Shown: positions 27,638 to 57,009, numbered from the stretch's first letter. The stretch: DNA of 64,000 nucleotides from a virus (IMGVR_UViG_3300042350_003801); one strand, 5' to 3'. Numbers and translations: made by a program. Notes: generated by a model not told the origin, from the letters alone.

Positions 27638-27645
27638 ATTCTCCT

Positions 27646-27736
27646 TTATTAAGTTCGCATTTCTATTTATAAAAATGGGGAGGTTGAACCTCCCCGGAGC
27701 CTTAAAGGTGCGAACTTAATAAGGCATCTCTATTTA
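27646..27736 (-). promoter_or_regulatory. double late promoter with a 14-bp antisense arm and an internal terminator-like hairpin
   Basis: TAAATA at 27731-27736 and 27664-27669; inverted repeat 27646-27659/27709-27722; hairpin 27677-27695. Confidence 0.75.
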
Positions 27737-27756
27737 TAGTAGAAGAATAATTTCAA

Positions 27757-28041
27757 CGAGAACGGCGTGACTCGAACACGCGACTTACTGCTTAGCTTAC
27801 CACTACGGATTTCCCCGCCATTTCTGTTTGTGGTCTGGACCATCTCTTCATCTTATCTTACGACTTAGATGCTTCCCGTATGGCCTCTACACGTTCAGGA
27901 TTTCTCCCGCTTCGCTCGGGATTGCCATAGTCTTACGACTTTAGGGTTCCCCGAATTTGAGAAGTTACATTTATGAAGTTTCCCTCGTAAAGCTCCTATT
28001 TTCGAAGGCAGTTGTTCTAAATCCAACTGAACTACGTTCCC
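27757..28041 (-). tRNA. tRNA-Arg (UCU), split by a group I intron (exons 28041-28005 and 27795-27757)
   Basis: acceptor GGGAACG/CGTTCTC; spliced loop CT-TCT-AA within stem ACTGC/GCAGT. Confidence 0.9.
27796..28004 (-). mobile_element. group I intron (209 nt, no ORF)
   Basis: core elements AAATTCGGGGAA (P), GGCAATCCCGAGC (Q), GTAGAGGCCATACG (R), AAGAGATGGTCCA (S); U-G at the 5' splice site; terminal G. Confidence 0.9.
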
Positions 28042-28173
28042 ATAATAAAACCCGAAATAACTCGGATTATGGTTTATTTAGTAAGAATCAAAAACACCCC
28101 AAATAACACAAAACGCTCCGGACGCTGAACCGGCACAGTTAAGCACCTGAACACCTATTACAATAAGTCAGGC

Positions 28174-28437
28174 TTATTCATTCACTTCATCAGACAAATC
28201 AAAGGTTTTTCTAAACATATTGCGCCCATAAAAGAAAAGCTGTATCATTAAAACATCAAGAAGAACGGTAACAATGAATGCACCGGCAAGAGAGGATACA
28301 TTATTATCGTTTACATAAACACTAACCGAGGAACTAACTCCTTGGTCTAAAAAATAAAATAGTGGAATCCAAAGTAGAATAGCAAGAAATCGTTGTAGAA
28401 TAATCATCGTTAAAATGCATAGGACGTGAATTTCCAT
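28174..28437 (-). CDS. small membrane protein
   Basis: two hydrophobic segments; downstream of an early-type promoter. Confidence 0.5.
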   Translation of the reverse strand: MEIHVLCILTMIILQRFLAILLWIPLFYFLDQGVSSSVSVYVNDNNVSSLAGAFIVTVLLDVLMIQLFFYGRNMFRKTFDLSDEVNE

Positions 28438-28504
28438 TCACCCGTTAAGAATAGCACAAAACCACAAGAACGGGGAAAACGTGTGTCAGTTCGTCAATTG
28501 TCAC

Positions 28505-28570
28505 AAAAAGAGCCCCGAAGGGCTCCAGTCAACTCAACAACAGGAAACAGTTGGGCGCTTATCCCCAACT
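28505..28570 (-). ncRNA. candidate ~65-nt small RNA
   Basis: extended -10 TATTCT at 28576-28581; hairpin 28550-28569; terminator GAGCCC-TTCG-GGGCTC-TTTTT. Confidence 0.45.
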
Positions 28571-28622
28571 CATTAAGAATAACACAAAACCACCAAAACG
28601 GGGAAAGCGTGTGCCAGTTTGA

Positions 28623-29063
28623 TTACTGGCTAATTTCTTCAAGATGTGGCGGAACAAAAGAAGCCCGAATACCCATAACGCCGCCCAACTCACTTTGAGC
28701 CTCGCTATTATCGGGTCTGAACTCATAATACACAGCATTCTCAATAAGAACCCGCTCGGGTCTATACCGATACTCATCAAGTATCTGCTGGTTCTTCATT
28801 TTAGGTTTATGCATTCTCTTTTCTTCTCGTTCATACTGCTCTATCGCAGAATCAACATCGTATTTTACTCTGCTGTTTAACAATTCAGGCGTTTTGATGA
28901 TGTATTCATTTAACTCTTTCGGAGAGTATTTAGTGTTTCTTTGAATCTGGTCATTAAGAACCCAAACTTTCTCTTCAGATAAACCGGTGCAACGGGAAAT
29001 ACAGAAAACAATCGTTGTTAATGTCAGAGATATAACTGTCCATCTAATAGCTTCTTTTTTCAC
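28623..29063 (-). CDS. hypothetical protein with an N-terminal signal/TM segment
   Basis: hydrophobic N-terminus. Confidence 0.55.
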   Translation of the reverse strand: MKKEAIRWTVISLTLTTIVFCISRCTGLSEEKVWVLNDQIQRNTKYSPKELNEYIIKTPELLNSRVKYDVDSAIEQYEREEKRMHKPKMKNQQILDEYRYRPERVLIENAVYYEFRPDNSEAQSELGGVMGIRASFVPPHLEEISQ

Positions 29064-29066
29064 CTA

Positions 29067-29597
29067 TCAATAAGAGCCAGGTTCTTGAAACACAGAGAGA
29101 AATACAGTTCCCTTCTTATAAAGTGGTAGAAGTTTATCTCTTAGATCAATGTTATAAAGTCTTACACAACCTAGTGTGGGGTATAGTGGTTGTCTGGGTG
29201 CCCAGGCTCCTGGCCAAAATGCGGCAGATCCGCCACCGTGAACCATAAGACCGGCTCTACCGTGACGAGCTTCCTGCCCTTCTAGTTCTACCATATCAAA
29301 TGACATCCACCCATATGCCATTAGGGTGCGATCATAGCGGGGGTAATCGCCGTAAGTTGCATAATCATTGTAAAGCTGTCCTAGCTTATAAAGGCCAGGA
29401 ACAGTATCACTTCCAGTTGCAGAAAATAGATAATCGCTACCTTGACCGCGAGCAAGAGCGGGGATTTCCCATAGAAGATTACCATAGAAATCGTATGCCT
29501 TTGCAGTCTCTACAATATCATTAACGACGATGTGAGTATCGCCAGGTTTAAATCCGAATTGTTTTGGACTTTTTCCAGGACCTACAGGTTTAGTCAT
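29067..29597 (-). CDS. L,D-transpeptidase (YkuD)-like protein
   Basis: LMVHGG...TLGCVRL catalytic His/Cys motif. Confidence 0.75.
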   Translation of the reverse strand: MTKPVGPGKSPKQFGFKPGDTHIVVNDIVETAKAYDFYGNLLWEIPALARGQGSDYLFSATGSDTVPGLYKLGQLYNDYATYGDYPRYDRTLMAYGWMSFDMVELEGQEARHGRAGLMVHGGGSAAFWPGAWAPRQPLYPTLGCVRLYNIDLRDKLLPLYKKGTVFLSVFQEPGSY

Positions 29598-29628
29598 AAT
29601 TGCAGCATATTGAACTGTAATTATTTAT

Positions 29629-30126
29629 TTAATATGGATTGCCAGTGAAAACGACAAATAGAACAAAAAGAAAAACCGCAAATCCAATACCAGCAAAAAT
29701 ATTAAATTTAATTATTGGCACAAAAACAAATCCAATAAAAAGAAAAATGCCACCCAAAGTGCCAGCAATTCCCAAAGTAATGCCCAATGCGATAAGAACT
29801 TTAGAGAAAAAAGGTTCCCATAGAAATTCAAGAATATCCCAAATCTCTTTAAAAACAAAGACTATTCCGGTTCCACAAAAATTTAGGAATTTTTTACAAA
29901 GTCTAAGAAGGCCTTTACTTTTATCTCTAGGTGGATTCTTATACTCACTAAAAATTCTAAAGTTTTCAATAGCAGTAGGATCAGCAGAATCTAGCCACTC
30001 TAAAAATTTCTCAGAGTCATAAGAGTTAATTTTTTGCCAATCTTCTTCAAACTCTTCAAAGTAGTCTGGATTATTTTTCAGGAATGCAGTTGTGATTGGT
30101 CTGGTGTGTTTCATTGGTGGTTTCAT
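29629..30126 (-). CDS. membrane protein
   Basis: several C-terminal hydrophobic helices. Confidence 0.55.
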   Translation of the reverse strand: MKPPMKHTRPITTAFLKNNPDYFEEFEEDWQKINSYDSEKFLEWLDSADPTAIENFRIFSEYKNPPRDKSKGLLRLCKKFLNFCGTGIVFVFKEIWDILEFLWEPFFSKVLIALGITLGIAGTLGGIFLFIGFVFVPIIKFNIFAGIGFAVFLFVLFVVFTGNPY

Positions 30127-30190
30127 AATAATACGGGCAAAGGGCTTCTCAAAAGAGAAACCCTTAACATTCCTAAATCAACCGTTTGAA

Positions 30191-30655
30191 TCAGTTAAGA
30201 ACTTCAAGACGAACATCGGCAAGACCACTGGAGGTTACTCCAAGATGACTTGCAATGCCTTGTCCAAGGTCTACAATACGGCCACCAACATAAGGTCCAC
30301 GGTCATTTACTCTTGCAACGGCACTACGACCATTGTTAAGATTAGTGATGCGAACTCTCGTGCCAAATGGCAGGCTACGGTGAGCAACAGTAAAGGTTCC
30401 CGGTCGGTAAGTTTCACCATTAGCAGTGCGATTACCATAGAATCCAGGACCATACCAACTTGCAACACCAGTGTATGCATAGGCAAGATTATGTTGAACC
30501 GAATGATTCTCCTCCATCATCCATTTATTCGTGTTAATAGAAGTTTCAGGAGAAACATCTATAGAATAAGAACTAGAAGAAATTGCTCGTGCCTGAACTG
30601 GGGCTAGCAGAACTGCACCGGCAAAAAGGATTGAGATAGTTTTGTTAATTTGCAT
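30191..30655 (-). CDS. rlpA: RlpA-like lytic transglycosylase (double-psi beta-barrel)
   Basis: signal peptide; GVASWYGPGF...TANGE...AHRSLPFGT...NDRGPY. Confidence 0.9.
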   Translation of the reverse strand: MQINKTISILFAGAVLLAPVQARAISSSSYSIDVSPETSINTNKWMMEENHSVQHNLAYAYTGVASWYGPGFYGNRTANGETYRPGTFTVAHRSLPFGTRVRITNLNNGRSAVARVNDRGPYVGGRIVDLGQGIASHLGVTSSGLADVRLEVLN

Positions 30656-31172
30656 TTAATTGAATAGAACTCGACATCCAGGCTTGAGTACCGTCGCAAC
30701 GCCCCCGTTCTAAAAGGCAGCACTCCCTGGCTCTAGTAACACTTATTTCATTATGAAAAAGTATTTAGGATGAAATTAAACATCCTAATTAAGGATAACA
30801 CAGTTTTAAGGCTTATGGGGCAGCAGTGGCCAGTTGTGGTTCCGACCACTCTTCCACGATTGCTTTTGTGTAATCAGGAAGATTTTTGTCCGTGAGATGT
30901 TTACAGCGTTCAGAAACCCACTTCTTGTTGGCTTCTTCAATTTTTTGTTCGTTGTTCATAGTTATTTAAAATCTACAATGCAATCAAGAACGACGAAAAT
31001 TTGGCAGTAACTACCAAACATAAACCGATTCCAAAAATCAAGGCACTAACTCCTGCTGCAATTTTAATAAATTCCATCATTTGTGGTTAAAGGCATCACT
31101 AACATACATCATTTATTGGCCGATGGACCGTTCAGTGGACACTTCTTAAACTGTCCATAAATAGAAAGAAAA

Positions 31173-31631
31173 ATGTGGCTGTATAATAATCAAGTTCTTG
31201 AAACTGTTCCAGAAGGAATGGAGGGGTTTGTATATCTTATTGAGAACTTAACAAACAATAAGAAATACATCGGTAAAAAGCACTTCTGGGAAAGGAGAAA
31301 GGACCGTAAGACGGGTAGAAGAAAGACAAAAGAGAGCAGTTGGCAATCTTATATGGGGAGTTGCGATGAATTGATTGCCGATTATAAAGAACTAGGAAGG
31401 GTAAACTTCAGGAAAACTATTCTTTATCTTTGCCCGCATAAGAAATCAATGTCTTATTTTGAAACATTAGAGCAGTTCAAAAGAGATGTTATTATGCGCG
31501 AAGATTATTACAATACTAATGTTGAAGGCAAGTTTTTCACTTCAGAGAAAGACAACATTTACAGTAAGGTTTTAATATCTGAAACGGTTCAAGACCAATC
31601 TTCAAACATAAATCCACTTGCAGTTGAATAG
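31173..31631 (+). CDS. GIY-YIG family endonuclease (Seg-like)
   Basis: GFVYLIENLTNNKKYIGKK; plus-strand late promoter ATAAATA just upstream. Confidence 0.8.
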   Translation: MWLYNNQVLETVPEGMEGFVYLIENLTNNKKYIGKKHFWERRKDRKTGRRKTKESSWQSYMGSCDELIADYKELGRVNFRKTILYLCPHKKSMSYFETLEQFKRDVIMREDYYNTNVEGKFFTSEKDNIYSKVLISETVQDQSSNINPLAVE

Positions 31632-32032
31632 TGAATCTTTGTTATTCCATTATGTTTAAGAAACAAAGTACATAGAGGACACGGGCGGGAGTTTCGGAGT
31701 TTATTACCACCGTGGCCTCCAACTCTTGCGATAATAATTGTATCACCTTCCTCTTTCGCTCTTATTGTGGCCAAAATTTCGGAATGCAAAAACTGCTTTT
31801 TTGAATACACGTCATTATCGTGAATGCGACTTGCAAGAATAGCATACTTCTCTTGAATAGGATGAGTCTTTCTATCATAATTACAGGCAGCGGAGATAAT
31901 TTTTCTTTTTTTAAGAAGTATACTTCCAACTCGTTTTTTAGAAGGAGATGCCATTGCAACCGAAATTGCACTATTAAGAATCTCCGGTTTCATTTGCGAC
32001 GGGACTGCAATAATATCGCTCAAAAGATACAT
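31589..32032 (-). CDS. cytidine/dCMP deaminase-like protein
   Basis: HSE...PCPLC zinc-binding motif. Confidence 0.8.
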   Translation of the reverse strand: MYLLSDIIAVPSQMKPEILNSAISVAMASPSKKRVGSILLKKRKIISAACNYDRKTHPIQEKYAILASRIHDNDVYSKKQFLHSEILATIRAKEEGDTIIIARVGGHGGNKLRNSRPCPLCTLFLKHNGITKIHYSTASGFMFEDWS

Positions 32033-32106
32033 CAGTTAGGCATTAAAAAAACACTCTAGCACAGTGTTGCGACCAGAGTGATTTAGGTGTGACAGTTTCT
32101 AAAGTG

Positions 32107-33276: not shown

Positions 33277-33306
33277 ATTTTGTTTTAGGTTATATTCTCC
33301 TATTAT

Positions 33307-33474
33307 TTAGGAAACTTGTCCCAGCAACTTTTCCTCAAAGTCTTCCCAGTATTTGTCTGTTGCCTCTGTATTATCTTCGGGGCTTCCTAGATAATCAAAC
33401 CAGAACTCTCCCGATTCGTGAAAGTTCTCCCAAAAGGCGGTTTTAATTTGGTCTAAAGTAAAAGTTTCTTCCAT
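33307..33474 (-). CDS. 55-aa acidic hypothetical protein (MEETFTLDQ...), not in the ORF track
   Basis: translated by hand; fills the gap after nrdB. Confidence 0.5.
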   Translation of the reverse strand: MEETFTLDQIKTAFWENFHESGEFWFDYLGSPEDNTEATDKYWEDFEEKLLGQVS

Positions 33475-33479
33475 TGTGT

Positions 33480-34670
33480 TTAAAGTTTAAAGTTTGCAAA
33501 GGCTGTAGGACTAACATCTTGTTTAATTCCACCAACAACATAACTCGAGATATTCTCTTCTTGTGGTGGAACTTGTTCATTTCTACTATTTAACCATTTC
33601 TCGGTCCAGGGTAATGGATTATTCTTAGATGAAATATCATACAGGGGTTTAAATCCAATGGCTCGCATTCTACGATTGGCAATCCATTCAATGTAATTGC
33701 AAAGTAGTTTTTCGCTGAGTCCGATCATTGATCCATCTTTAAAAAGGTAATGAGCCCAATTTTTTTCTTCATTTACCGTATTTTCAAACATACGGTAACA
33801 AAGTGCTTCTTCTTCTCTGGCTATCTGAACCATATCTAGGTCATCGCCATTTCTCCATTTAGTGAGGATATTCTGAGTTAAGAATAGATGAAGTCTTTCA
33901 TCAAGGGCAATTTTAGAAATAATTTTTGCCGAACCTTCCATTAGTTCGCGTTCGCCAAATGCGAAACTACAGGCAAAAGAGATATAAAAACGAATGCCTT
34001 CTAAAATGTTAACATTCATCACCGCCCGGTAAAGTTTCCGCTTTAGTTCATAAAGCTCTTGCTTTCCCAATGGAACTCCTTCATTATTAAATTTCCATAG
34101 TTCAGATGAACCATACTGTTGAGCAGAATTAATAAAATCATCATAAGATGCAGTAACACTAGATGCTCGCTCTAGAATCTTCTCATCATCAATAATGTGG
34201 TCAAACACTTCTGACGGGTTGCTGGTATAGACATTCTTAATAATGTATGTATAAGAATAACTATGAACCATCTCCATAAACTGCCAGGCAATCATACAAG
34301 ATTCTAGTTCTGGCAAAGAGCAATAAGGAATGAAAGCCATTCCTGGACCTCTTCCTTGAACTGAATCCAACATAATCTGATACTTCAGATTGGAAGTAAA
34401 AATATGCTTTTGATATGGAGAAAGTTTTAAATAATCAGTGCGATCTTTTTGAAGTGGAAACTCTTCTGGTCTCCAAAATGCACCCAGTTGATCCTGCGTA
34501 AGGCGATAAAATGCAGGATATTTATGGACATCATATCTTTGAACTCCTAGGGGTTTCCCAAAGAACATTTTCTCTTTTGTTGTATCTACGTTTGTTGAAT
34601 TAAAAACGGTCATTCCCGTAACCTCAGATGCTACATCCTTCACAATAATCCTCTCCTTCACTTGTTTCAA
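33480..34670 (-). CDS. nrdB: ribonucleotide reductase class Ia beta subunit (true start may be slightly downstream)
   Basis: FWRPEE, LDSVQG, EMVHSYSY, LEGIRFY, DERLH. Confidence 0.95.
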   Translation of the reverse strand: MKQVKERIIVKDVASEVTGMTVFNSTNVDTTKEKMFFGKPLGVQRYDVHKYPAFYRLTQDQLGAFWRPEEFPLQKDRTDYLKLSPYQKHIFTSNLKYQIMLDSVQGRGPGMAFIPYCSLPELESCMIAWQFMEMVHSYSYTYIIKNVYTSNPSEVFDHIIDDEKILERASSVTASYDDFINSAQQYGSSELWKFNNEGVPLGKQELYELKRKLYRAVMNVNILEGIRFYISFACSFAFGERELMEGSAKIISKIALDERLHLFLTQNILTKWRNGDDLDMVQIAREEEALCYRMFENTVNEEKNWAHYLFKDGSMIGLSEKLLCNYIEWIANRRMRAIGFKPLYDISSKNNPLPWTEKWLNSRNEQVPPQEENISSYVVGGIKQDVSPTAFANFKL

Positions 34671-37434
34671 TAGTATTAATCAAATTTTCTAGTTCGTTTA
34701 CCTGTTCAAGTTCCACTTCAGCAGAATCAGAATCCTTCTTACTATCGTATGTATTATGATAATACAGCGTCTTGACCCCCATCTTGTATGCATAAAGAAC
34801 TTCGCCGAGAATAAGACTCATTGGGACTTCCTTATCGGGGAACATCTCTGGATTGTATGCAGTATTGGCACTGATTGACTGGTCAATAAACTTTTGAAGA
34901 ACCGCAACAATGTTAAGATAACCAATATTAGACGGGGCATCCCATAGTAGACTATAATTATTCTTTAAAGATGAATATTGTGGAACAATTTGCTTAAGTC
35001 TACGCTTAACCGATAGATGTTCTCTTGGCATTTCAATACCATTTGGGGCATTTAACATCAGGCTTGATGATTCACCGGGCATCGCACAACTGAGAGTAGA
35101 ATGTCTCAAGCCATATTGTATAATGTCTTGCCGCAGTTGTTCCCAATCGTGCTGTAGTGGAACCGAACAAATTTCATCAACATCTTTCTTGTAAGTATCA
35201 ATAGGAAGAATACCATCTGCATACTTCGTTCTACCAAAGTATTCACAATGGCCGCGTTCTTGTGCAATCTTATTAGATGCCCTTAAAAGGAAGTATTGAA
35301 TACTTTCACCCAGTCTATGGCAACTATCCCAGGCCGATTGTTCGTGATAAGATTGACCAAGTTTAGCAAGATAGTGAGCCAGACCCATAATACCAATTCC
35401 TAGAGACCTTCTCGCCCTTGTTGAAATTTCCGCAGCCTTAACAAGATAATCTTGCCATTCAATCAACTCTTCAAGAGCCCTTACAATCAATTCACAGCAC
35501 TCCTCTAGTTCCTTATCGTTTTTGATTGTTCCAACATTCAGTCCTCCGAGAATACACAAAGAAATTTCTGCCAGTTCATCTTCAAGGCTTTGAATAGGAT
35601 GAACCGGCAAAGTTACCTCGACACAGTTATGAACCAAAATTCCATTTGCAAAGAAGTTATGCGTTCCCTCTACTGTAATGTCATAGACTGGGATTTCTTC
35701 TTCTAGGTATTCAATAGTTCTATATTTATTTTTAACTTTTTTAATTCCATCATCCCATAGAACAACTAGCTGATCTGTCCCCTGAATATCTTTTGCCTCA
35801 ACATACCCACGATTTTCTGTGAAGACTTTATGCTCAGGTGTTAAAATAACCCGACCATCATTAAGAGACAATACTTTCGCGCTGGGAGATGTTTGAGCAA
35901 ATGCTGTGATTGGACTCCAAACTCTTTCACCTTTTTCAGTATCGTAAGAAAGAACTTGAATTTTAGGAACATCGCTTTCTTTGCGAAATGAAACCTCTCT
36001 TTCTCTATCGAGAAAATAATCCTCCAACTCTCGAATCTCAATTTCAGCACTGCATAGTTCCCAACAGGAACCAATGGATACTGGATACTCAATTCTAATT
36101 TTGGTGTCACCAGCAACACAGAGGTTGCTCATACTAATATGGTCTTTAAAAGAACTATGAGTATTGCAATGGTCAATATTCATAATGTAAATGCGACCAG
36201 TTTCGCTTCTTTCTTTGAGAATATTCAAAATAAGTTCCTGGGCTTTTACTTTACGCTTAGGAATAGTCGGATCATTCTCATATTGAACATAAAGGTCATC
36301 AAAACGTTCAGTTCCAAACGATTCTTCTAGATTGGGAACGTGGTGAGGAGAAAATAGAGTAATTTCTCCATCTTGAATATAACGCTCATAGAATAGTTTT
36401 GAAATCTTGATTGCATAATCAATATTTCTCACTCTGTTTTCATCATTGCCCTTATTATTCTTAAGGACAATAATATCTTCAATCTCTTGATGCCAAATGC
36501 TAACGTATGCCGTCATACTCCCTTTTCTTACGCCACCTTGATGGCAAGATTCAAGAGACGCCTGAAACTTTTTAAGATATGGAATCAAACCCGATGAAAT
36601 AACTTTACCCTTACGAATTTTACTCCTAATGCCACGAATTTTACTAACGTCAATACCAACACCGGCTCCACCTGAAACGTATTTCATCATTGCTCCATCA
36701 GATGCAATGATGCTGTCAAGTGTATCATCTACATCAATGAGACAACAAGATGCAGCCTGCTTATCTGGCGTTCTGACACTTGCCATTACGGGTGTGGGCA
36801 GATTAATCTTATGCTTACTTACAACCTCATAATAACGCTTAACATATGATAGCCTTACATCTTTTGAATAATTTGCAAAGATTGTAAGAGCAATCATAAT
36901 ATACATAAACTGAGGCGTCTCGAAGACCTGTTTAGTATCACGGTCTTGAACAAGATATTTATCTTCAGCCTGCTTAAGACCAGCATAGGTGAAAAGAAAA
37001 TCTCGGTCGTGGTCAATGAAAGAATTTACGGTATCAATTTCTTCTTTTGAATATTTGGTGTAAATATCTGCATCATAATATTCTCGGGCAATGCAAAAAT
37101 TAATATGTTCTTCAAGATGTGGCATATCAATACGGCCACCGTATAAACGCTTACGAATAGAAAAAAGAAGCAATCTAGCCGCAACATATTGATAATTTGG
37201 ATGGTCCAAACTGATTAAATCCGATGCAGACTTAACAAGAATCTGCTGAATTTCATCAGTTGTAATTCCAGCATAAAACTGAAGACCAGAGTTCATTTCA
37301 ATCTGCGAGGCAGATACATTGGCCAAACCAACGCAAGCACAATTCACCATATCGTGAATTTTTTCTAGCATCAATGGCTCAACATTGCCATTGCGCTTAA
37401 CTACAGTAATACCATTGCTCATTTTTTCTTCCAT
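34624..37434 (-). CDS. nrdA: ribonucleotide reductase class Ia alpha subunit, with intein
   Basis: N-terminal ATP cone (VVKRNG), SNLC...E, MPGESSS, C-terminal CEGC. Confidence 0.95.
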   Translation of the reverse strand: MEEKMSNGITVVKRNGNVEPLMLEKIHDMVNCACVGLANVSASQIEMNSGLQFYAGITTDEIQQILVKSASDLISLDHPNYQYVAARLLLFSIRKRLYGGRIDMPHLEEHINFCIAREYYDADIYTKYSKEEIDTVNSFIDHDRDFLFTYAGLKQAEDKYLVQDRDTKQVFETPQFMYIMIALTIFANYSKDVRLSYVKRYYEVVSKHKINLPTPVMASVRTPDKQAASCCLIDVDDTLDSIIASDGAMMKYVSGGAGVGIDVSKIRGIRSKIRKGKVISSGLIPYLKKFQASLESCHQGGVRKGSMTAYVSIWHQEIEDIIVLKNNKGNDENRVRNIDYAIKISKLFYERYIQDGEITLFSPHHVPNLEESFGTERFDDLYVQYENDPTIPKRKVKAQELILNILKERSETGRIYIMNIDHCNTHSSFKDHISMSNLCVAGDTKIRIEYPVSIGSCWELCSAEIEIRELEDYFLDREREVSFRKESDVPKIQVLSYDTEKGERVWSPITAFAQTSPSAKVLSLNDGRVILTPEHKVFTENRGYVEAKDIQGTDQLVVLWDDGIKKVKNKYRTIEYLEEEIPVYDITVEGTHNFFANGILVHNCVEVTLPVHPIQSLEDELAEISLCILGGLNVGTIKNDKELEECCELIVRALEELIEWQDYLVKAAEISTRARRSLGIGIMGLAHYLAKLGQSYHEQSAWDSCHRLGESIQYFLLRASNKIAQERGHCEYFGRTKYADGILPIDTYKKDVDEICSVPLQHDWEQLRQDIIQYGLRHSTLSCAMPGESSSLMLNAPNGIEMPREHLSVKRRLKQIVPQYSSLKNNYSLLWDAPSNIGYLNIVAVLQKFIDQSISANTAYNPEMFPDKEVPMSLILGEVLYAYKMGVKTLYYHNTYDSKKDSDSAEVELEQVNELENLINTIETSEGEDYCEGCSI
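35626..36120 (-). mobile_element. 165-aa mini-intein in NrdA
   Basis: NL|CVAGDT ... LTPEHKVFT ... FFANGILVHN|CVE; no endonuclease domain. Confidence 0.95.
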
Positions 37435-38393: not shown

Positions 38394-38804
38394 TCATCCC
38401 CTGTCAAGGACCCTTATCATAGCACGTTCCGCTGGTTTTGTCAAGTCCCCCTTAAAAAGGCCGATGATTGGAGGAAGGGCAATGAATAAAAAATTCAGGG
38501 CTAAAACGATACCAATGCCAATATTAACCTTATCCTGCAACCCTTTAATTACACCCAAAACCTCTTCTTTATCAGTATTCATTTTTGTAGTGAGCCCTCG
38601 TATCCCCTCTTCTACCTTTCGGTTAATATCATCTCCCCTTTGTTGCTGCTGTTCAATTTTTACTTGGTGGACAGCAAAAAGTTCACTGATTCTTACGTTT
38701 ACCTTGCTAATTTCCGAGATTGCTTCTCTTAGCGTTGCCATCTCCTTTTCACTATTTTCCTGACTCCTTTCAAGTAGAGCCAAACGAACAGATTCTTCTT
38801 GCAT
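38394..38804 (-). CDS. coiled-coil protein with a C-terminal TM helix
   Basis: heptad pattern followed by a hydrophobic segment. Confidence 0.6.
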   Translation of the reverse strand: MQEESVRLALLERSQENSEKEMATLREAISEISKVNVRISELFAVHQVKIEQQQQRGDDINRKVEEGIRGLTTKMNTDKEEVLGVIKGLQDKVNIGIGIVLALNFLFIALPPIIGLFKGDLTKPAERAMIRVLDRG

Positions 38805-38865
38805 TGTGTGCTCCGTGGAGATGTTTATCTCACAAAAATATCCATAAAGTTATAACTATTTAGGG

Positions 38866-39460: not shown

Positions 39461-39467
39461 TTAGAGG

Positions 39468-40238: not shown

Positions 40239-40293
40239 TAATATTACCTTAAATAGTATTTGCTAAGAATTATTTATGCGAATTTTTTATTAC

Positions 40294-46170: not shown

Positions 46171-46181
46171 AATGTTTTCAA

Positions 46182-46643
46182 TCAGTTAGGATTAGTTGTT
46201 TCGGTATTAATAATTAAAAATTTATCTATAGAGATATATTCAATTACGGGTGGTACTTCTAGTTTTTTTCCAGTATATTCGGAAATATCATTGAGTTCTT
46301 CTTGGGCCAAGAGTGATTTCAAAGTTCCCTCGCGCTCAGATTTTTCTTCAGGCGACAAAACGCGGCTATAATACCCAAAGAATCCATAATTATTGGAGCT
46401 ATGGTTAGTATCACTATCGCAACGTAAAATTTGTTCTTCAATTCCAGACATAGTTGAGAACAAAAGTTTACTAGGTATCTCAATATTCAAATTATTTAAT
46501 TTTTCGGCTAGATAATCTTTTTCTATTTCTTTTGTAGTTTTTGAATTTGGATGGTATTCAATTTCAAGATTTTCATTCTCATTGAAAGTGTCAAGAAGCA
46601 TTTGTCGCGTTTTTTCAGAGATGGTATACATAATTTCAATCAA
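46182..46643 (-). CDS. hypothetical protein
   Basis: ORF track. Confidence 0.5.
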   Translation of the reverse strand: MIEIMYTISEKTRQMLLDTFNENENLEIEYHPNSKTTKEIEKDYLAEKLNNLNIEIPSKLLFSTMSGIEEQILRCDSDTNHSSNNYGFFGYYSRVLSPEEKSEREGTLKSLLAQEELNDISEYTGKKLEVPPVIEYISIDKFLIINTETTNPN

Positions 46644-47067
46644 AGTTAAAGTTTTTGAATTTGGATTTGAAGTCTTTCTTTTCTGGTTCTAAATCTACTA
46701 TTTCTACAAGTGTGTCCTGGGCTTCTTGCTCTACATCATACAGCCTCATCTTTGCCCTATCTATGCCAACCGTAAACCGACGATATGGGTCTAGTGCTCC
46801 GTAACGATTCTTGAGTTGTTTAACAAGAATCTGATTAAGACCTTCTAGTTCTTCGGTTGAAATAAGACCAAACATATAATCAACAGTATGTGTAATACCA
46901 ATACTTTCAGATGTATCCGAGAGGTTTAAGTCTGAACTGGAAATTGCACTATTATGAGTTAAAATATTATTAGCAAAAAATAAATTATCGCCAGATACCT
47001 CAATATCTATAGTTTCTTCAATTCCAATTTTCTCAATAGAAACAATCTCATCTACAAAAATTTGCAT
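46636..47067 (-). CDS. gp41: gp41 helicase C-terminal fragment fused to a C-intein (IntC 46951-47067, 39 aa)
   Basis: IDIEVSGDNLFFANNILTHN|SAI followed by SDTSESIG...KQLKNRYG. Confidence 0.95.
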   Translation of the reverse strand: MQIFVDEIVSIEKIGIEETIDIEVSGDNLFFANNILTHNSAISSSDLNLSDTSESIGITHTVDYMFGLISTEELEGLNQILVKQLKNRYGALDPYRRFTVGIDRAKMRLYDVEQEAQDTLVEIVDLEPEKKDFKSKFKNFNFD

Positions 47068-48422
47068 TTTTCATACTCCGTGAATTCCATTAAACTGAAC
47101 ATTTTTTCTAAGTCTTCTGTTATTTTCCAAGACCGAAGAATTAAAACATTGTAACCACGTTGCTCTGCTATCCATTTTTTAAAAAAATCTCTGTTATACT
47201 CAAAGTTGTTAATATTCTCTTTAGTGGCCATAAGTGTCGAATTGTAATCTATATCACTATGAAATTTAGCTCCATGATATTCTATTATTAAATTTGATTT
47301 TGGAATATAAAAATCATAGAAAAAGTATCTATTTTTGTTATATATTTTATGCTCATTTAAAGTTAGGAAAATTCCTATTTCGTCTTCTCTATAGAGACAT
47401 TTTTTACCTCTTTTTTTTAAAATTTCATTTAATTTATTAAAATAAAATAGAGATTCTTTTGAAAATTTAGAAATTTTTTTATTTCTTTCCCAGTGTATTT
47501 TTGATATGATTTCAAAAGATATATCTTCTGGGATATTTCTTTTTTCATAGTATTCAATACACATCGGATTGGCTTCTTTATGTCTTTTAATGAATTCTTC
47601 GTATTTTATCCGGCCATCTTTTTCCCCATATCTTGCTATAAATGAATGAATTGAATTATTATCCCATCTATTGAGAATTTCTATTCTTATTTCATCGTAA
47701 GATGCTCCTTCATTTAACATTTTTTTAATAAGAGTTTCTTTATTTAAAGATTTGGATTTTTTGTCATTCAACTCTTTAAATTTTTTTAACCCTTCTTCCT
47801 CACCGTATTTTAAAATTTTGGCGTTTAATGTATTATTTTCGCCCTGTTTTTTAGAAAAATCAATATAATGTTTTTCCCAGTCGTCACCATACCTTTTTTT
47901 AAATGCCCTTTTAGAAGTTCCGAATCCAGTAAAGTCCCAAAATTCTCTAAAAACTATGGGTCCTTCTATTTCACCGTGTCTTTTAATGCACATTTCAAGT
48001 GACATAGATTTTGATTTATTATATTCTTCATATTTTATTTTTCCATCAATTTCCCCATATTTTGTAATAAATTTTTCCAGTGTTTGTTTGCAATTGTTAT
48101 TTTTTTGTTCATATCTTCTTTTACCCTCTTCGTCACCATACCTAAGTTTAGATGCTTCCAGAGATGAGGAATCTTTACTATATTTTAATAGTTCAATTGT
48201 TCTTCCGTAAATATTATCCAATCCGAGATTAATTTGTTTGGAAATTACTTTCATTCTAGAATGTATTGAAAATTCTCCTCTATTATGACATTCAACTAAT
48301 TTTTTAAGGTCTTCTTCATACGAATCAATATTTTTCAGGCCGGACAAAATTTTTAATCTATCCATCAAATAAGGTAATTCCATTCTATTTTTATCGGCAA
48401 CACAATTATTTATGTAAAACAA
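47052..48422 (-). CDS. free-standing homing endonuclease, Vsr-like/PD-(D/E)XK C-terminus (likely start MELPY at 48383)
   Basis: YDFYIPKSNLIIEYHGAKFH; six (K/R)(Y/H)GxxxG-type repeats; sits between the split-intein halves. Confidence 0.8.
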   Translation of the reverse strand: MFYINNCVADKNRMELPYLMDRLKILSGLKNIDSYEEDLKKLVECHNRGEFSIHSRMKVISKQINLGLDNIYGRTIELLKYSKDSSSLEASKLRYGDEEGKRRYEQKNNNCKQTLEKFITKYGEIDGKIKYEEYNKSKSMSLEMCIKRHGEIEGPIVFREFWDFTGFGTSKRAFKKRYGDDWEKHYIDFSKKQGENNTLNAKILKYGEEEGLKKFKELNDKKSKSLNKETLIKKMLNEGASYDEIRIEILNRWDNNSIHSFIARYGEKDGRIKYEEFIKRHKEANPMCIEYYEKRNIPEDISFEIISKIHWERNKKISKFSKESLFYFNKLNEILKKRGKKCLYREDEIGIFLTLNEHKIYNKNRYFFYDFYIPKSNLIIEYHGAKFHSDIDYNSTLMATKENINNFEYNRDFFKKWIAEQRGYNVLILRSWKITEDLEKMFSLMEFTEYEKCKFL

Positions 48423-48436
48423 TATTTGCGTCGCCG
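48395..48436 (-). promoter_or_regulatory. late promoter inside a hairpin whose 3' arm is the endonuclease mRNA leader
   Basis: CGGCGACGCAA (48436-48426) pairs with TTGTGTTGCCG (48405-48395); TAAATA at 48407-48412. Confidence 0.7.
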
Positions 48437-48439
48437 TAA

Positions 48440-49765
48440 TTATTGTTTTACAAACAATTTATCTCCAACCGATAAGCCACTGAGTATATTCCTTTCCCCC
48501 ATAACAGTTGGAAAAATATGTTTATTTGAACAACGTATCTTTTTACCAGATTTCGTTGTAATTTCGTAAACTTGTTGTTTCTCAACCGCAAAAACATTTT
48601 TAACTATAACCGGTTTTGTATGAGATTCAATAATGTCACCCACTCTAATGTCTTTTATTGTAACAATTTCTCCTGAAGATTTAGTGACGTTTGTGTTTAA
48701 ACTCAAACACCTATTTGTTTGAGTTGCACTAATAACCGGAACATCAAACTCCACGGCAATTGAACGCACTTCTTCTGCAATAGATTTTACGATTGTATAG
48801 CTATTTGCCTGGCCATTATTTTTATAACGGCTGGAAGCACAGATATTTAGATAGTCAACGATAATCACATCAGGAGTAAATGACTTCTTCAGTTTTAGTT
48901 CATTGATAAATGCCCTAAAGTGACCGGCGTGTGCCGATACAGGAGGATACTCTTTAACAATTAATTTGCCTTGGGTTTTGGAAGATAGGCGCTTAACCTT
49001 TGAATCAAAATCAGATTTTGCAATCTTTGCGAAATCTTTAATGTCTACATCAAGAAGATTTGCATCAATTCTCTGAGCAATCTTTTTTTCCGACATTTCA
49101 AGAGTAATGTAAAGAACATTCTTACCTTGAAGAAGATATGATGCAGCAAAGTGGCACATTACCAAACTTTTTCCTATACCCGTAGAAGCAATGAGAACCG
49201 TAAGTGTTTTAGCTAAAAGACCACCATCAGTAATCCTATTAAAATAAGACAAGTCAAACGGTAGTTTTTCTTCTTTTAGAATATAAGATTCATAACGAGC
49301 ATCTGAATCTTCAAGATAATCGTGGCCAATATGACTATCAAAACTTACGGCAAGAGCATCACTAAGAATTGATGGAATTGCTTCTTTTGTAAGTTTTGAG
49401 TCGCTACCATCCGCAATCTGAATACATTCACGAATGGCAAGATAAACTGCCCTATCTTTACACCATTGTTCAGTTGTTTTTAGTAGCCATTCTTTCTCTG
49501 CTGGTTCATCGGAGAGACCAGAAACAATCTCTACAATATTTGCAAACGACTCCTCGTTTAAGTCGGTTCTTTTTTCCAACTCAATATAAAGAGATTCTTG
49601 AGTTGGAAGTGCATTGTATTCAACAACGAATGATGAAATTTCATCATAAAGGACCTTTTGCAAGGAGTCATTAAAGTATTCAGTTTTGATAAACGGAAGA
49701 ACTTTTCTTGTGAAGTCTTCATTGTATATTAAGTTTCTAAGAATTAGTGCTTCAGTTGTTTCCAT
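48440..49765 (-). CDS. gp41: gp41 replicative helicase N-terminal fragment fused to an N-intein (IntN 48443-48709, 89 aa)
   Basis: ASTGIGKS Walker A, IIVDYLNI, SATQTNR|CLSLNT. Confidence 0.95.
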   Translation of the reverse strand: METTEALILRNLIYNEDFTRKVLPFIKTEYFNDSLQKVLYDEISSFVVEYNALPTQESLYIELEKRTDLNEESFANIVEIVSGLSDEPAEKEWLLKTTEQWCKDRAVYLAIRECIQIADGSDSKLTKEAIPSILSDALAVSFDSHIGHDYLEDSDARYESYILKEEKLPFDLSYFNRITDGGLLAKTLTVLIASTGIGKSLVMCHFAASYLLQGKNVLYITLEMSEKKIAQRIDANLLDVDIKDFAKIAKSDFDSKVKRLSSKTQGKLIVKEYPPVSAHAGHFRAFINELKLKKSFTPDVIIVDYLNICASSRYKNNGQANSYTIVKSIAEEVRSIAVEFDVPVISATQTNRCLSLNTNVTKSSGEIVTIKDIRVGDIIESHTKPVIVKNVFAVEKQQVYEITTKSGKKIRCSNKHIFPTVMGERNILSGLSVGDKLFVKQ

Positions 49766-49771
49766 TCATTA

Positions 49772-50812: not shown

Positions 50813-50819
50813 ACGTTAA

Positions 50820-53318: not shown

Positions 53319-53683
53319 CCGTTAAGTAGTGCTTCGTATTTTGACTGTAGCACTGCATTTGGCTTAGCTAGTGTTAACATCTTATCAGAATTAATGACAA
53401 ATCTATTTGAATCGGTATATTCTAATAGATATGGAGAAAGTGTAGAGAGATTTGCATCTTCTATAACAAATGGCTCAATCATAACCCATTCATTTTCTCC
53501 GTCTTCATCTACATTTTTAACTAGTTGAGTAATCAGAATAATATGTGGAAAAACTACAATCCAGGCTTCTACTTCTTTTTTTCTTTTTGGGAGTGTTATT
53601 TTCTTTTTCGCTTTTTCTCTTGTCGATTGCGGTGCCGGGGCAGCTTGTGGCATATTAACTTCAGTTAGCATTGTTTCAATCAT
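53315..53683 (-). CDS. hypothetical protein
   Basis: ORF track; sits between hsp20 and gp43. Confidence 0.6.
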   Translation of the reverse strand: MIETMLTEVNMPQAAPAPQSTREKAKKKITLPKRKKEVEAWIVVFPHIILITQLVKNVDEDGENEWVMIEPFVIEDANLSTLSPYLLEYTDSNRFVINSDKMLTLAKPNAVLQSKYEALLNG

Positions 53684-53710
53684 TTCATTCTTGTAAAATA
53701 GTAAAAAAAT

Positions 53711-53750
53711 AGCAGGGCGGTATCTGATATGTGCCAGATGCCCTGCTTTT
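53711..53750 (-). terminator. terminator downstream of hsp20
   Basis: AGCAGGGC...GCCCTGCT stem flanked by A/T runs. Confidence 0.7.
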
Positions 53751-53786
53751 AATTGGCAACGATAATTAGGGAGCAGCCCGTTCTAT

Positions 53787-54218
53787 TTAGAACCTATAGT
53801 CCTGTCTTTTTTCGTGCTCGGGCACGTGGCGATCAATAGAAATGGTTAGAAGACCGTTAACAAAAGTTACAGTTTCAACTTTCCAGGTTTCTGGCAAAAC
53901 TCTTGCCCATTTAAAGTTGCGAAGAGCAACTCCTCTTTCAATGTATGTATCGGTTGATTTTTCATTCTTGGCTCCTTCCACGACAAGTTTTCCACTTTCA
54001 GTGTAGACTTGGATTTCCGAACTATTGAAACCGGCAAGTGCAATTTCTACTCTACGTCGGGTATCAGATTCTTGAACAATATTAACTGGAGGGTAATTTG
54101 TATATGTCCCGGAAAGAGATGTTACTCTATCAAAGAAAGTATCAAATCCGAGAGAGTATCGGTCAATATCATCAAAAAATTTTGATAGATTGGCAGTTGC
54201 ATAGCGCGTGATTGTCAT
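53787..54218 (-). CDS. hsp20: small heat shock protein
   Basis: NYPPVNI, EIALAGF, RGVALRNF, NGLLTI. Confidence 0.95.
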   Translation of the reverse strand: MTITRYATANLSKFFDDIDRYSLGFDTFFDRVTSLSGTYTNYPPVNIVQESDTRRRVEIALAGFNSSEIQVYTESGKLVVEGAKNEKSTDTYIERGVALRNFKWARVLPETWKVETVTFVNGLLTISIDRHVPEHEKRQDYRF

Positions 54219-54323
54219 TTGTTTCTCCTTTTAAGCGAGTGTTTTAATTGCAAGACCCCTAAGGCATCGTGCTACGCTTATTTAGCAGAAAATGATTGAA
54301 AAATAAAGTGAGGAAAGCCGCAT

Positions 54324-54776
54324 TCACCCGTTCGGTGTTTCCACCTTTGAGGTCTTCTTCTTTCCACCAATAGTGTATTTTGAAACCAATTCGTAATCCT
54401 GACGTTCTTTATATGTAAGAACCTTAATAAGGCTCAGAGGAGCCATATCTTCAATTTGTTCTGGTCTTACAATATTGATTAGTCCCCAATCACTTAAAAG
54501 TTTTGCAATCCTATTACGTCTCCGAACATCATCTTCAGATAGAGTGCAATACTTACCATCAAGAGCAAATAGTTCTTTATATGAAATGATATAGTATTTT
54601 CCTGACTTATGAAGAATGTGAGCACTCTGGTATAGTTTCTTTTCGTGCTTACTTGAAATACCTACACGCTGTAGGGTTTCTTTAACAACTAGAAAAGTAT
54701 CTGGTTCATCAAGTGTTACTTCAATCATCAGAGAGGGATTCCAATCAACGTATCCCTCTTTATTCAATTCACTCAT
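54324..54776 (-). CDS. regA: translational repressor RegA
   Basis: FLVVKETLQRVGISS...KLYQSAHILHKSGKYYI. Confidence 0.95.
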   Translation of the reverse strand: MSELNKEGYVDWNPSLMIEVTLDEPDTFLVVKETLQRVGISSKHEKKLYQSAHILHKSGKYYIISYKELFALDGKYCTLSEDDVRRRNRIAKLLSDWGLINIVRPEQIEDMAPLSLIKVLTYKERQDYELVSKYTIGGKKKTSKVETPNG

Positions 54777-55165
54777 TTTCTCATTCCACCTTTATTCAAT
54801 CTTTGTTTGATAAAATTTATCTCTTCTCTATTTAGAAGTCTTAGGGCTTCTAATGCCCGTTTATCATTGTAACCATAATATTCTTTAATGGCGGCTAGAT
54901 TCTCTGCATCTTCTTTTTTAACCCAAGGAGTGTATCTCTTTTTCTTTCTCAAAGAATGTAGATAAAAGGCATATTGCATATCCTTAGAGATATAAGGATA
55001 TTGATTCAGTTCATTGGCAAACAGAATCGTATCAAGATGCCCAGCAACACACTTATTGACAATATAAGGAGTATAGGAAGAAATATTTTCAGGAATCTCC
55101 TCAATAAGATTCTCTTTCGAGAAATTGATTGAAGTTAGCCACTGTCCTAAATCCGGTGCAGTCAT
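54773..55165 (-). CDS. gp62: clamp loader small subunit
   Basis: YTPYIVNKC, LRKKKRYTPW, KEYYGYNDKRA. Confidence 0.9.
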   Translation of the reverse strand: MTAPDLGQWLTSINFSKENLIEEIPENISSYTPYIVNKCVAGHLDTILFANELNQYPYISKDMQYAFYLHSLRKKKRYTPWVKKEDAENLAAIKEYYGYNDKRALEALRLLNREEINFIKQRLNKGGMRK

Positions 55166-55683
55166 TTAACCTAGATCTTGTAAAAAACCCGTTTCAAGAA
55201 ATGCCTCTTGTTCCATATCAACAATAGGTGTTGCAAACTCAATAGGAGGATTTGCAGTTTCAAACGTTTCAGTGCATAGACCAAAAAGTTCAATAAGGGT
55301 TAGAGTATCTGTTACATCAATTGCCTTTAGGTCTTTTTCAATTACCCAGTCTTGAAATAGGTCAATCTCTTTCCAGGGGTCTTCGGAATAACCCCACGGT
55401 GGTTTAATGTCATTCATTATGCAGCTCCAGTTTTTAGAAATTCGGGTAGACCCTTATAAAGGCTATAGGCATACTGCCGTTGCTCTTCGGTTAGTGAATC
55501 TTGATGCAGTTCACTAAACTCCCCGGCGGGCTCTTCTCCTAAAAGGTCCATAACAATGTTTGGCTTCCAGTTGTCATATGCAAAAGGATTCTGCCAAGTT
55601 GAGTCTTCGGTTAGATTGTTATAAAAAACTGTTGCAAGTGTAGCCAGGTCGTCGGTTTGATTTCGGTTCATAATTAACTCCAT
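55166..55683 (-). CDS. two acidic hypothetical proteins (55166-55417, 55417-55683) between gp44 and gp62
   Basis: ORF track; the RBS of the upstream one lies in the gp44 remnant. Confidence 0.55.
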
Positions 55684-55694
55684 TCGATTTCATA
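55674..55694 (-). pseudogene. displaced original gp44 3' end (TAT GAA ATC GAA TGG AGT TAA = YEIEWS*), occupying the putative guide position
   Basis: matches the current gp44 end YELEFSG* at peptide level; abuts the element end TTAC. Confidence 0.75.
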
Positions 55695-55804
55695 GTAAAA
55701 AACTCTATTGATTTTCTAGACGCTTCACAGCAGATGCTAAATGGTGAAAATCACCGCTCAGTCTTAATTCCGCTCCACGCCCGTAATCGGCGTACTCCGC
55801 CGAT
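55695..55804 (-). ncRNA. cis omegaRNA scaffold overlapping the tnpB 3' end
   Basis: hairpin ATCGGCG/CGCCGAT; GGGCGTGGAG...TGAAGCGTC pairing typical of IS200/IS605 right ends; homologous to 2657-2762. Confidence 0.8.
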
Positions 55805-56901
55805 GAAATTTCTTTATCGGTTAGGCTGCGCCAACCTTCCTTTAAGATATTGATAGAGGCATTTAAGTCTCTATCATGTTTTGAGCCGCAAGACGGACAA
55901 GTCCATTCCCGAATGTTTAGAGGCATCTTGTCTTCCTTGTAACCACAAGAACTACAAGTCTTACTAGAGGGAAAGAAGCGGTTAATCTTAACCAAGACTT
56001 TTCCATACCAGTTGCATTTATACTCTAACATAGAAACAAAAGTAGACCAGGCTGCATCAGAAATAGACTTCGCCAGTTTGCGGTTTTTCAGCATTCCAGA
56101 AACATTAAGGTCTTCAAGAACTATTAAATCAAATGTGTTCACTAAAGCGGTAGACACATTATGAAGAAAATAAATTCTTGAATTGGTAATGAATTCGTGT
56201 ACTTTAGCAACTTTTATTCGTTGCCGGTTGTAACGATTACTACCTTTAGTCTTACGACTTAAATGTTTCTGTGCTTTTTTGAGTTTCGCTTGGTTCTTGC
56301 GAAACCACTTGGGGTTGTTGATAACTTGACCATTTGAAAGAATGAACAAGTCTTTAATGCCCAAATCAATACCTACTACTTTACCCGTAGAGGGTATTGG
56401 ATTGAGTTCTTGCTTAATCAAGATAGAGACAAAATATTTTCCGGTTGGTGTTTTAGAAACAGTAATGCTCCTGAAGTCTGCTTCTTCGGGAATTTCGCGG
56501 TCAATAACAACTTTAACCCAACCAATTTTTTCAAGTCTAACTAAAGAGTTTTTTTGGTCAAGTTTAAACCTTTGATTATTGAGTCTAAAAGACTGCCTAT
56601 TTGATTTCTTCTTGTATCTGGGTCTTCCGAGTTTAACCTTTCGTTTCTTGTTGAAAAACTGTTTCTTAAATTCAATAAAGTCATCTCTTTTTTGTTGAAG
56701 GGTAGAAGCAGAAACCTCTTTAAGAAACTCAAATTCAGGAGTGTCTTTAAGCGTCTTCTCGGTAATAACTTCCTTGGAGTTGTTATTGAAGTTTTCAACA
56801 AGTTTATTCCAAACAAACCTGCAACAGCCGAAAGTCTTTGCTAGTAGAATTTCTTGCTCTTCAGACGGATAAATCCGAAACTTGTATGCTTTTAAGTGCA
56901 T
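55705..56901 (-). CDS. tnpB: TnpB RNA-guided endonuclease (IS200/IS605 family)
   Basis: N-terminal [12 protein letters not shown]; RuvC GIDLG, VLEDL, DRDLNAS; zinc finger CSSCG...CPSCG; all three acidic catalytic residues present. Confidence 0.97.
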
Positions 56902-56913
56902 CCGCTCTGTTTA

Positions 56914-57009
56914 TTGGTTGGCAATACTATTTAGTAAAGTTTTATTTTATAAGGGGAGAATTGCTCCTCCCCACCTGAAAAGCGCCAACCAACCAGGCAT
57001 CTTTATTTA
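56914..57009 (-). promoter_or_regulatory. double late promoter / antisense leader module of tnpB
   Basis: TAAATA at 57004-57009 and 56928-56933; hairpin 56953-56972; TTGGTTGGC (56992-56984) complementary to GCCAACCAA (56922-56914). Confidence 0.7.

Follow-up and report, generated by a model that had tools for sequence, protein, structure and literature searches.

A late promoter lying within a hairpin that occludes the ribosome-binding site (RBS) has been described for I-TevI, I-TevII, I-TevIII, segB and mobE of phage Aeh1 (PMC2988022). For environmental T4-like and cyanophage-like loci, Dassa et al. (2009) report hairpins in 15 of 16 endonuclease 5' untranslated regions, ten of them with TATAAATA, as well as two conserved and mutually pairing motifs before free-standing endonuclease genes in metagenomic fractured genes (PMC2677866). 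We analyzed 64,000 nt of DNA from an uncultured virus (IMGVR_UViG_3300042350_003801; this whole stretch is referred to as the window) and found before two of its nuclease genes a cassette of ~110 nt with the order late-type promoter P1, stem-loop SL1, GC-rich hairpin, late promoter P2, leader and ATG. It is likely that the cassette controls expression at the RNA level, following T4 logic with P1 and SL1, and possibly a small RNA from P1, added to it. As in the T-even systems, an RBS-sequestering helix is predicted only on transcripts started upstream, TATAAATA lies between the arms, and the regulated gene is that of a homing endonuclease. The cassette differs from these systems in that it is a sequence-conserved, portable unit found across four nuclease families, that a second late-type promoter is positioned precisely at its upstream arm, and that it contains a local stem-loop presenting this arm as well as an intrinsic terminator inside the loop. 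The text of Dassa et al. describes a single translational hairpin and no terminator, second promoter or small RNA. The late promoter inside an RBS-occluding hairpin is thus already known from I-TevI and Aeh1 mobE, and from Dassa et al. for metagenomic nuclease genes, whereas P1, SL1, the internal terminator, the portability across families and the link to tnpB are new.

The cassette precedes a PD-(D/E)XK gene at site 1 and tnpB at site 2. The features of the two sites, in positions of the window, are as follows.

27731-27738, minus strand: site 1 P1, T4-type late promoter box TATAAATA (motif match)
27699-27725, minus strand: site 1 SL1, 6-bp stem GCCUUA/UAAGGC with a 15-nt loop (fold and inverted repeat)
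27671-27695, minus strand: site 1 intrinsic-terminator-like hairpin GGGGAGG-TTCAA-CCTCCCC plus ATTTTT, stem-loop at 27677-27695 (terminator scan, fold)
27664-27671, minus strand: site 1 P2, late promoter box TATAAATA (motif match)
27638-27659, minus strand: site 1 leader, with the downstream arm TGCGAACTTAATAA at 27646-27659 leading into the Shine-Dalgarno (SD) sequence AAGGAG at 27641-27646 (fold)
27215-27637, minus strand: PD-(D/E)XK homing-type endonuclease gene, PF11645, E = 3.3e-36 (Pfam match)
57004-57011, minus strand: site 2 P1, late-type box ACTAAATA with TAAATA at 57004-57009, invariant among tnpB-linked cassettes
56973-56998, minus strand: site 2 SL1, stem GCCUGG/UCAGGU, the upstream arm including TTGGTTGGC at 56984-56992 (fold)
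56953-56972, minus strand: site 2 GC-rich hairpin GGGGAGGAGCAATTCTCCCC with no U-tract, followed by TTATAAAATAAAAC (fold, terminator scan)
56928-56935, minus strand: site 2 P2, box ACTAAATA with TAAATA at 56928-56933 (motif match)
56902-56922, minus strand: site 2 leader, with the arm GCCAACCAA at 56914-56922 (fold)
55705-56901, minus strand: tnpB, with HTH_OrfB_IS605, OrfB_IS605 and Cas12f1-like TNB domains (domain matches)

Motif, inverted-repeat and fold checks recovered on the minus strand all the elements that an initial annotation of the window had named at these two sites. Read along this strand, site 1 presents TATAAATA, GAGATGCC..., the stem-loop, the hairpin, TATAAATA again and then GAAATGCGAACTTAATAAAGGAGAATATG, with the AUG at 27635-27637. 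TATAAATA occurs only three times in the 64 kb, and two of these occurrences are P1 and P2 of site 1. The upstream arm comprises the SL1 5' strand and loop, and its perfect 14-nt portion (27709-27722) is repeated in inverted orientation at 27646-27659; the window contains no longer perfect repeat of this kind within 110 nt. The 9-nt complement at site 2 (56984-56992 with 56914-56922) is extended imperfectly up to CAGAGC, immediately before the AUG (56899-56901). The leader pairing of site 1 had been said to reach the RBS; the helix does run to the SD region at site 1, and at site 2 it comes close to the start codon by way of the imperfect extension. When both strands of the window were scanned for TAAATA ahead of a stem-loop with TTT at the end of its loop, exactly three places were found (57009, 27736 and 2799), the third being the orphan already noticed initially as having the same stem-loop with a different loop.

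Cassettes were retrieved from uncultured viral contigs by one pattern on P1 plus the stem-loop, by a second pattern free of P1, and by tnpB protein homology; both patterns required parts of SL1. After de-duplication, 64 distinct cassettes and one dubious match were obtained. The downstream gene was homing-nuclease-like in all 61 cassettes with a readable open reading frame (ORF), with 52 ORFs in one cluster, eight tnpB genes and one PD-(D/E)XK gene (PDDEXK_5). In the 52-member cluster only sampled representatives were matched, and they gave GIY-YIG, NUMOD3, phrog_314 or phrog_655 (the last two being homing/HNH endonuclease PHROGs), while the types of the L073 and L047 subgroups are GIY-YIG-like by motifs and weak matches only. 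Judged by these sequence matches, four nuclease families of 140-400 aa stand behind the cassette: GIY-YIG, HNH, TnpB and PD-(D/E)XK. The suggestion that a reusable module is involved was thereby borne out, and the recurrence of the cassette is far beyond chance. Since one cassette serves four unrelated families, its regulation travels, or is re-used, as a module.

Among cultured phages, BLAST detected the cassette only in Synechococcus phage S-SRM01 (Kyanoviridae, freshwater, 240.8 kb), which has two copies, upstream of the HNH endonuclease gp030 and of the 'homing endonuclease' gp297. The genome paper of S-SRM01 makes no mention of the cassette. The annotated start of gp297 lies inside the cassette (NC_070963.1 192466-193167; L250:2544-3245), and translation probably starts downstream of P2 and the leader, at the ATG at L250:2598. 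The cassette is probably a portable expression-control unit specific to a clade of freshwater T4-like cyanophages.

The pairing between the arm and the leader was longer than initially described. The antisense bases had been placed mainly in the loop, whereas the complementarity extends from the nucleotide before the conserved loop CUUUU back through the SL1 5' strand. On the leader side, the helix covers the region from about +1 of P2 through the purine-rich AGAG(C/U)AG (AAGGAG at site 1) just before the AUG, and it thus comprises 17-20 bp, including a few G.U pairs and interrupted by one bulge, and extends to the SD region. Cognate arm-leader duplexes had a mean energy of -23.8 kcal/mol versus -12.0 kcal/mol for non-cognate ones, and the cognate leader ranked first in 31 of 49 cassettes. 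RNAalifold applied to a MAFFT alignment recovered only the SL1 stem, in which one pair covaries from G-C to A-U or U-A; the long helix was missed because indels shift its register. Covariation was therefore counted with our own register-anchored script over a ten-position core helix. Canonical pairs made up 96.7% of the core, compared with 62.3 +/- 1.7% with shuffled leaders (maximum 68.4% in 1000 shuffles), and three to five canonical pair types occurred at each position. The arms fell into 24 alleles, and distinct alleles coexisted within one genome in four cases. The covariation agrees with the initial proposal that the complementarity reflects real pairing.

The duplex of the sense strand was more stable than its complement in 48 of 64 cassettes because of 83 G.U pairs. 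These pairs and the strand bias argue for an RNA of the coding strand, as judged from predicted energies, rather than for a DNA structure. For the predicted P1 RNAs, the fold consisted of SL1 and the hairpin, with -22 kcal/mol and z-scores of -4.5 (site 1) and -2.2 (site 2). Read-through RNAs extending to the start codon adopted a long helix that encloses the hairpin and in which the SD is paired, at -35.5 and -34.5 kcal/mol (z = -4.8 and -3.4) for sites 1 and 2, respectively; the pairing at site 1 reached the AGG of the SD. The leaders of RNAs starting at P2 were unstructured on their own. In silico, the RBS-sequestering helix is thus a property of upstream-initiated transcripts.

IS200/IS605 elements, in which tnpB genes normally reside, have subterminal hairpins at their ends. 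The structures before tnpB could accordingly be left-end (LE) hairpins for TnpA rather than expression signals, and the conserved block indeed starts ~11 nt upstream of P1 in differing contexts, so that it moves with tnpB. However, the site 1 cassette is homologous in sequence to the tnpB-linked cassette L011 (both contain GTTCGCACCTTT.AGG within the arm and, at P2 and the leader, ATAAATAG.A.TGCGAAC), and homologous cassettes precede GIY-YIG, HNH and PD-(D/E)XK genes that do not belong to insertion sequences. Among viral contigs, all tnpB homologues at 80-96% identity retain the cassette, whereas those at <=55% identity are without it. In addition, the G.U pairs favor a sense-strand RNA. The LE explanation was rejected as very improbable, since the cassette is common to nuclease genes outside insertion sequences and absent from distant tnpB loci.

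The positions of the promoters relative to the arms are consistent with RNA-level control. P2 was TATAAATA, the full T4 consensus, in 43 of 49 cassettes, and the first paired leader nucleotide followed the P2 box by 5-6 nt in 54 of 64. This is where the start of a T4 late transcript is expected, 5-6 nt past a box that lies about one helical turn upstream (PMC2988020). By sequence, the late promoter is therefore located between the arms, and late transcripts would lack the 5' arm. Since the P2 leader starts at the pairing region, these transcripts are expected to escape occlusion, as in I-TevI. P1 was commonly NATAAATA or NCTAAATA, which match late-promoter variants reported for S-PM2 (PMC2984593) and Aeh1 (PMC2988020). 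The 5 nt after both boxes are AT-rich. A transcript from P1 is predicted to begin with the upstream arm or shortly ahead of it, and a median of 57 nt separates this predicted start from the P2 box. P1 TAAATA was present at a fixed spacing in all 19 cassettes found without requiring P1, namely 7/7 linked to tnpB by protein homology and 12/12 true cassettes from the P1-free pattern, indicating that P1 is not an artefact of the search pattern.

A GC-rich hairpin was present in all cassettes, with a median of -15.5 kcal/mol. With an intrinsic terminator defined as having at least 5 T in the 8 nt after the stem, the rule was satisfied by 44 of the 56 non-tnpB cassettes. The hairpin of site 1 was called by the terminator scan (8 pairs, 6 GC, T-tract), and its T-run overlaps P2. 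The initial claim of a terminator releasing a small RNA is thus plausible for site 1, where the canonical terminator could give a ~57-nt antisense RNA, and is not supported for tnpB.

In the mechanism that we infer, which comprises promoter activity, termination, translational occlusion and possibly an action in trans, transcripts that enter from upstream or start at P1 would carry the upstream arm. In most cassettes, the GC-rich hairpin and the U-tract abutting P2 would stop much of the upstream transcription. Molecules that read through would fold the arm-leader helix, burying the SD region and preventing translation, while transcripts from P2 would begin at the first paired leader nucleotide without the upstream arm, leave the RBS free and give a little nuclease late in infection. 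P1 would probably yield a ~57-nt RNA of two hairpins (SL1 and the terminator). By pairing of its loop with the 5' end of the mRNA from P2, this RNA could act in trans to lower the translation or stability of that mRNA. A promoter, SL1 with a loop of 15-17 nt, and a terminator over ~57 nt correspond to the anatomy of an antisense small RNA (sRNA) gene, and the predicted SL1 presents a single-stranded loop that is complementary to the RBS region of the target and covaries with it, as is characteristic of c4-like RNAs. For cassettes with a terminator, such as site 1, we estimate the chance that the small RNA exists and acts in trans as ranging from a substantial minority prospect to an even one, and as lower for tnpB.

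Several observations weigh against parts of this mechanism. P1 was the full TATAAATA in only 7 of 49 cassettes, and CTTTTCAGG looks invariant in part because both search patterns required portions of SL1; only the tnpB-linked set of seven is free of this bias. In 12 of the 56 non-tnpB cassettes the hairpin abuts TTATAAATA with 4 T and has no good U-tract, and no U-tract by the above rule was found in any of the eight tnpB-type cassettes. A discrete small RNA would thus not be a universal product of the cassette. Furthermore, the covariation is compatible with pairing in cis and in trans alike, and the putative SD AGAG(C/U)AG is weak and assigned by position only.

As an alternative, the cassette may act only in cis, as a classical T4 terminator or insulator combined with an RBS-occluding hairpin and an internal late promoter, with P1 making no functional small RNA. 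P1 might then be a weak or silent box with some other role, such as that of a hot spot for recombination or insertion at late promoters. The model of I-TevI and mobE (PMC2988022) covers everything except P1 and SL1, the tnpB subfamily lacks the U-tract, half-cassettes standing alone at the ends of ordinary genes resemble plain terminators, and Dassa et al. read similar elements as single hairpins (PMC2677866). However, the classical model leaves unexplained why P1 is kept at a fixed distance in all 19 unbiased cassettes, with its predicted start at or just before the arm, and why the 3' strand of SL1 is conserved and its stem covaries although this strand lies outside the occluding helix. The sRNA-gene anatomy also speaks against action in cis alone. 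We regard a cis-only cassette as a serious possibility, if somewhat short of an even one.

More tentative than this is the full small-RNA proposal, in which P1 is an active late promoter and the cassette encodes a new class of same-strand antisense RNAs of ~57 nt, built of two hairpins and mobile together with homing-nuclease genes. A private 'address' (at least 24 alleles) would fit each RNA to its own leader, and the RNA would titrate the nuclease mRNA to a low expression independent of context and copy number, and the tnpB version would separate the production of guide RNA from that of protein. A type I toxin-antitoxin system was also considered, in which an unstable antisense RNA neutralizes the mRNA of a small toxic, usually membrane, peptide and thereby causes addiction; the regulated genes here encode nucleases of the above size, nothing suggests addiction, and only the RNA-RNA logic is similar.

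In the tnpB subfamily, an A-rich spacer and a duplicated promoter context lie between the hairpin and P2. At site 2, the terminator scan called no terminator and found no T-tract at the hairpin (56953-56972). Since the U-tract is missing from all eight tnpB cassettes, the release of a discrete small RNA is doubtful here; with the U-tract lost from the hairpin, P1 transcripts would probably extend past it and remain untranslated. The contexts of P1 and P2 at site 2 (window 56928-57020, minus strand) are near-duplicates of each other, with one mismatch in 17 nt (TAAAACTTCACTAAATA and TAAAACTTTACTAAATA), and a degenerate TTATAAAATA occupies the place where other cassettes have P2. This arrangement suggests that a copy of P1 may have replaced P2 in the tnpB subfamily. 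A division of labor can be envisaged, in which the read-through transcripts from P1, silenced by the cis helix, carry and serve as precursors of the 3' omega-RNA guide while the P2 transcripts give TnpB. P1 and SL1 are kept in all tnpB cassettes in spite of the missing U-tract, and a gene-less orphan in the window keeps P1, SL1 and the hairpin with no P2 and no leader. The idea is nevertheless purely inferential, and the orphan could be the remnant of a deletion; we consider this division of labor rather unlikely.

The orphan is a half-cassette with the following position.

2744-2801, minus strand: orphan half-cassette with a GATAAATA box, an SL1-like stem-loop (GCTCGG/TCGGGT, loop CTAGTTAATACTTT) and the hairpin ATCGGTG/CACCGAT (scan and fold)

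Its hairpin has no U-tract, no complementary leader follows, and no target complementary to its loop was found within the window. Solo half-cassettes with P1, SL1 and the terminator were also observed elsewhere at the ends of ordinary phage genes (L060:3010-3084, minus strand; L098:4075-4140, plus strand; L064:7543-7620, plus strand). No intact P2, leader or nuclease gene accompanies them, and they represent either traces of nuclease genes since lost or an ancestral gene-end module.

Same-strand antisense RNAs encoded upstream of their targets are known from temperate phages: the c4 RNA of phages P1/P7 acts on the icd-ant RBS, and the CI RNA of P4 is of the same kind. As in these, the RNA predicted from promoter P1 would be a small stem-loop RNA in the same orientation upstream of its target, with a loop that pairs with the RBS region, and as in c4 the loop and target covary between phages, which gives specificity. 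By this analogy, c4 (cited in PMC8546580, refs 35, 37) may be the nearest precedent. c4 differs in being processed from the same transcript and in controlling an antirepressor in a temperate phage, whereas the putative cassette RNA would have a late promoter and terminator of its own and would control selfish nuclease genes of a lytic phage. CfrI of S-PM2 is a ~225-nt antisense transcript from the opposite strand that spans an endonuclease gene and psbA (PMC2984593). It is likewise non-coding and associated with a homing endonuclease gene in a T4-like cyanophage, whereas the cassette RNA would be a sense-strand RNA located upstream, with ~15-20 nt of complementarity derived from an inverted repeat. 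The PeSL promoter-stem-loop cassettes of T4-type phages, reportedly described by Arbiol, Comeau and Krisch in 2010, are also short mobile regulatory motifs, of promoter and stem-loop, that travel with accessory genes in T4-type genomes. PeSLs differ in having early promoters, in flanking diverse small ORFs, and in lacking arm-leader complementarity.

The third nuclease gene that had been assigned to the same control lies in the gp41 region, where the features are as follows.

48395-48436, minus strand: site 3 simple hairpin, 11-bp arms 48426-48436 and 48395-48405 with two G.U pairs, and CATAAATA at 48407-48414 in the loop (inverted repeat, fold)
47052-48383, minus strand: free-standing 443-aa ORF between the gp41 intein-N part (48440-49765) and intein-C part (46636-47067) (ORF and domain search)

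The 11-bp arms around CATAAATA were found as described initially. They form part of a longer imperfect hairpin (-26.4 kcal/mol, z = -4.4) that stops ~10 nt short of the AUG, and an 18-nt arm pair overlaps them. Site 3 has no P1, SL1 or terminator and was rejected as a member of the cassette family. The initial view of three nuclease genes under one control thus holds for sites 1 and 2, which carry homologous cassettes, and not for this simpler hairpin. The gp41 helicase gene is 'fractured' here (window 46636-49765, minus strand) into an N-part ending in intein-N (Hint), the 443-aa ORF and a 143-aa ORF with a weak intein-C match at its start, and this locus is the fractured-gene arrangement of Dassa et al. 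(PMC2677866). The 443-aa ORF had no Pfam, PHROG-named or PDB sequence match; its Atlas neighbors, which are language-model leads, carry DUF559, NUMOD3 and Vsr, and at this level it is probably a DUF559/Vsr-like homing endonuclease.

The PD-(D/E)XK gene of site 1 belongs to PF11645, which we take to be the I-Ssp6803I family. Its relatives at <=62% identity (4 viral and 54 metagenome loci) all lack the cassette and sit in tRNA clusters, many of them inside group I introns. Immediately upstream of site 1, the window contains a tRNA gene with a group I intron (27753-28041, minus strand; Rfam RF00028, 66 bits, 27814-28014). When 28041-28005 was joined to 27795-~27753 by the U|...G| rule, ARAGORN recognized tRNA-Arg(UCU), placing the intron at 27796-28004 between positions 34 and 35. 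The nuclease gene is free-standing just downstream of this tRNA, while its homologues elsewhere are found inside such tRNA introns or beside uninterrupted tRNA-Arg(UCU), and the pair presumably resembles 'collaborative' pairs of an intron and a free-standing endonuclease. Here, a nuclease of a tRNA-intron lineage has thus been joined to the local phage cassette, a combination that fits a module re-used across nuclease families.

The window comes from an uncultured T4-like phage of lake water and represents its replication-gene region. All genes lie on the minus strand, and they include gp46-like, the clamp loader gp44, tnpB, DNA polymerase gp43, the intein-split gp41 helicase, NrdA with an intein and the PF11645 PD-(D/E)XK gene. 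The DNA polymerase is ~50% identical to those of marine cyanomyoviruses. Database comparison found no near-identical phage record, and the DNA runs that contain the stretch are lake-water metagenomes. An Rfam scan of the whole window at the gathering score matched only the group I intron and tRNA; the cassette is without an Rfam family. The NrdA large subunit (34624-37434, minus strand) has an in-frame intein (Intein_splicing, residues 485-603). By motif count only, GATGCC repeats with a 12-nt period occur within two ORFs (9552-9713 and 17458-17604, minus strand) and look like coding tandem repeats.

Homing endonucleases need to be expressed just enough to spread without harming their phage, and to our knowledge their control has so far been worked out gene by gene in T4. 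The present cassette is one exchangeable, self-contained control unit for a whole phage clade and four unrelated nuclease families, and the two copies in the cultured phage S-SRM01 open it to bench study. As initially proposed, tnpB is wired like a homing endonuclease gene, the cassette being found otherwise only before such genes, and this provides independent circumstantial support for the view that TnpB of phages homes as an RNA-guided nuclease. Should the P1 RNA exist, it would represent a new phage sRNA family whose specificity is programmable, and the cassette would be a compact natural design for insulated, late-only and low-level expression.

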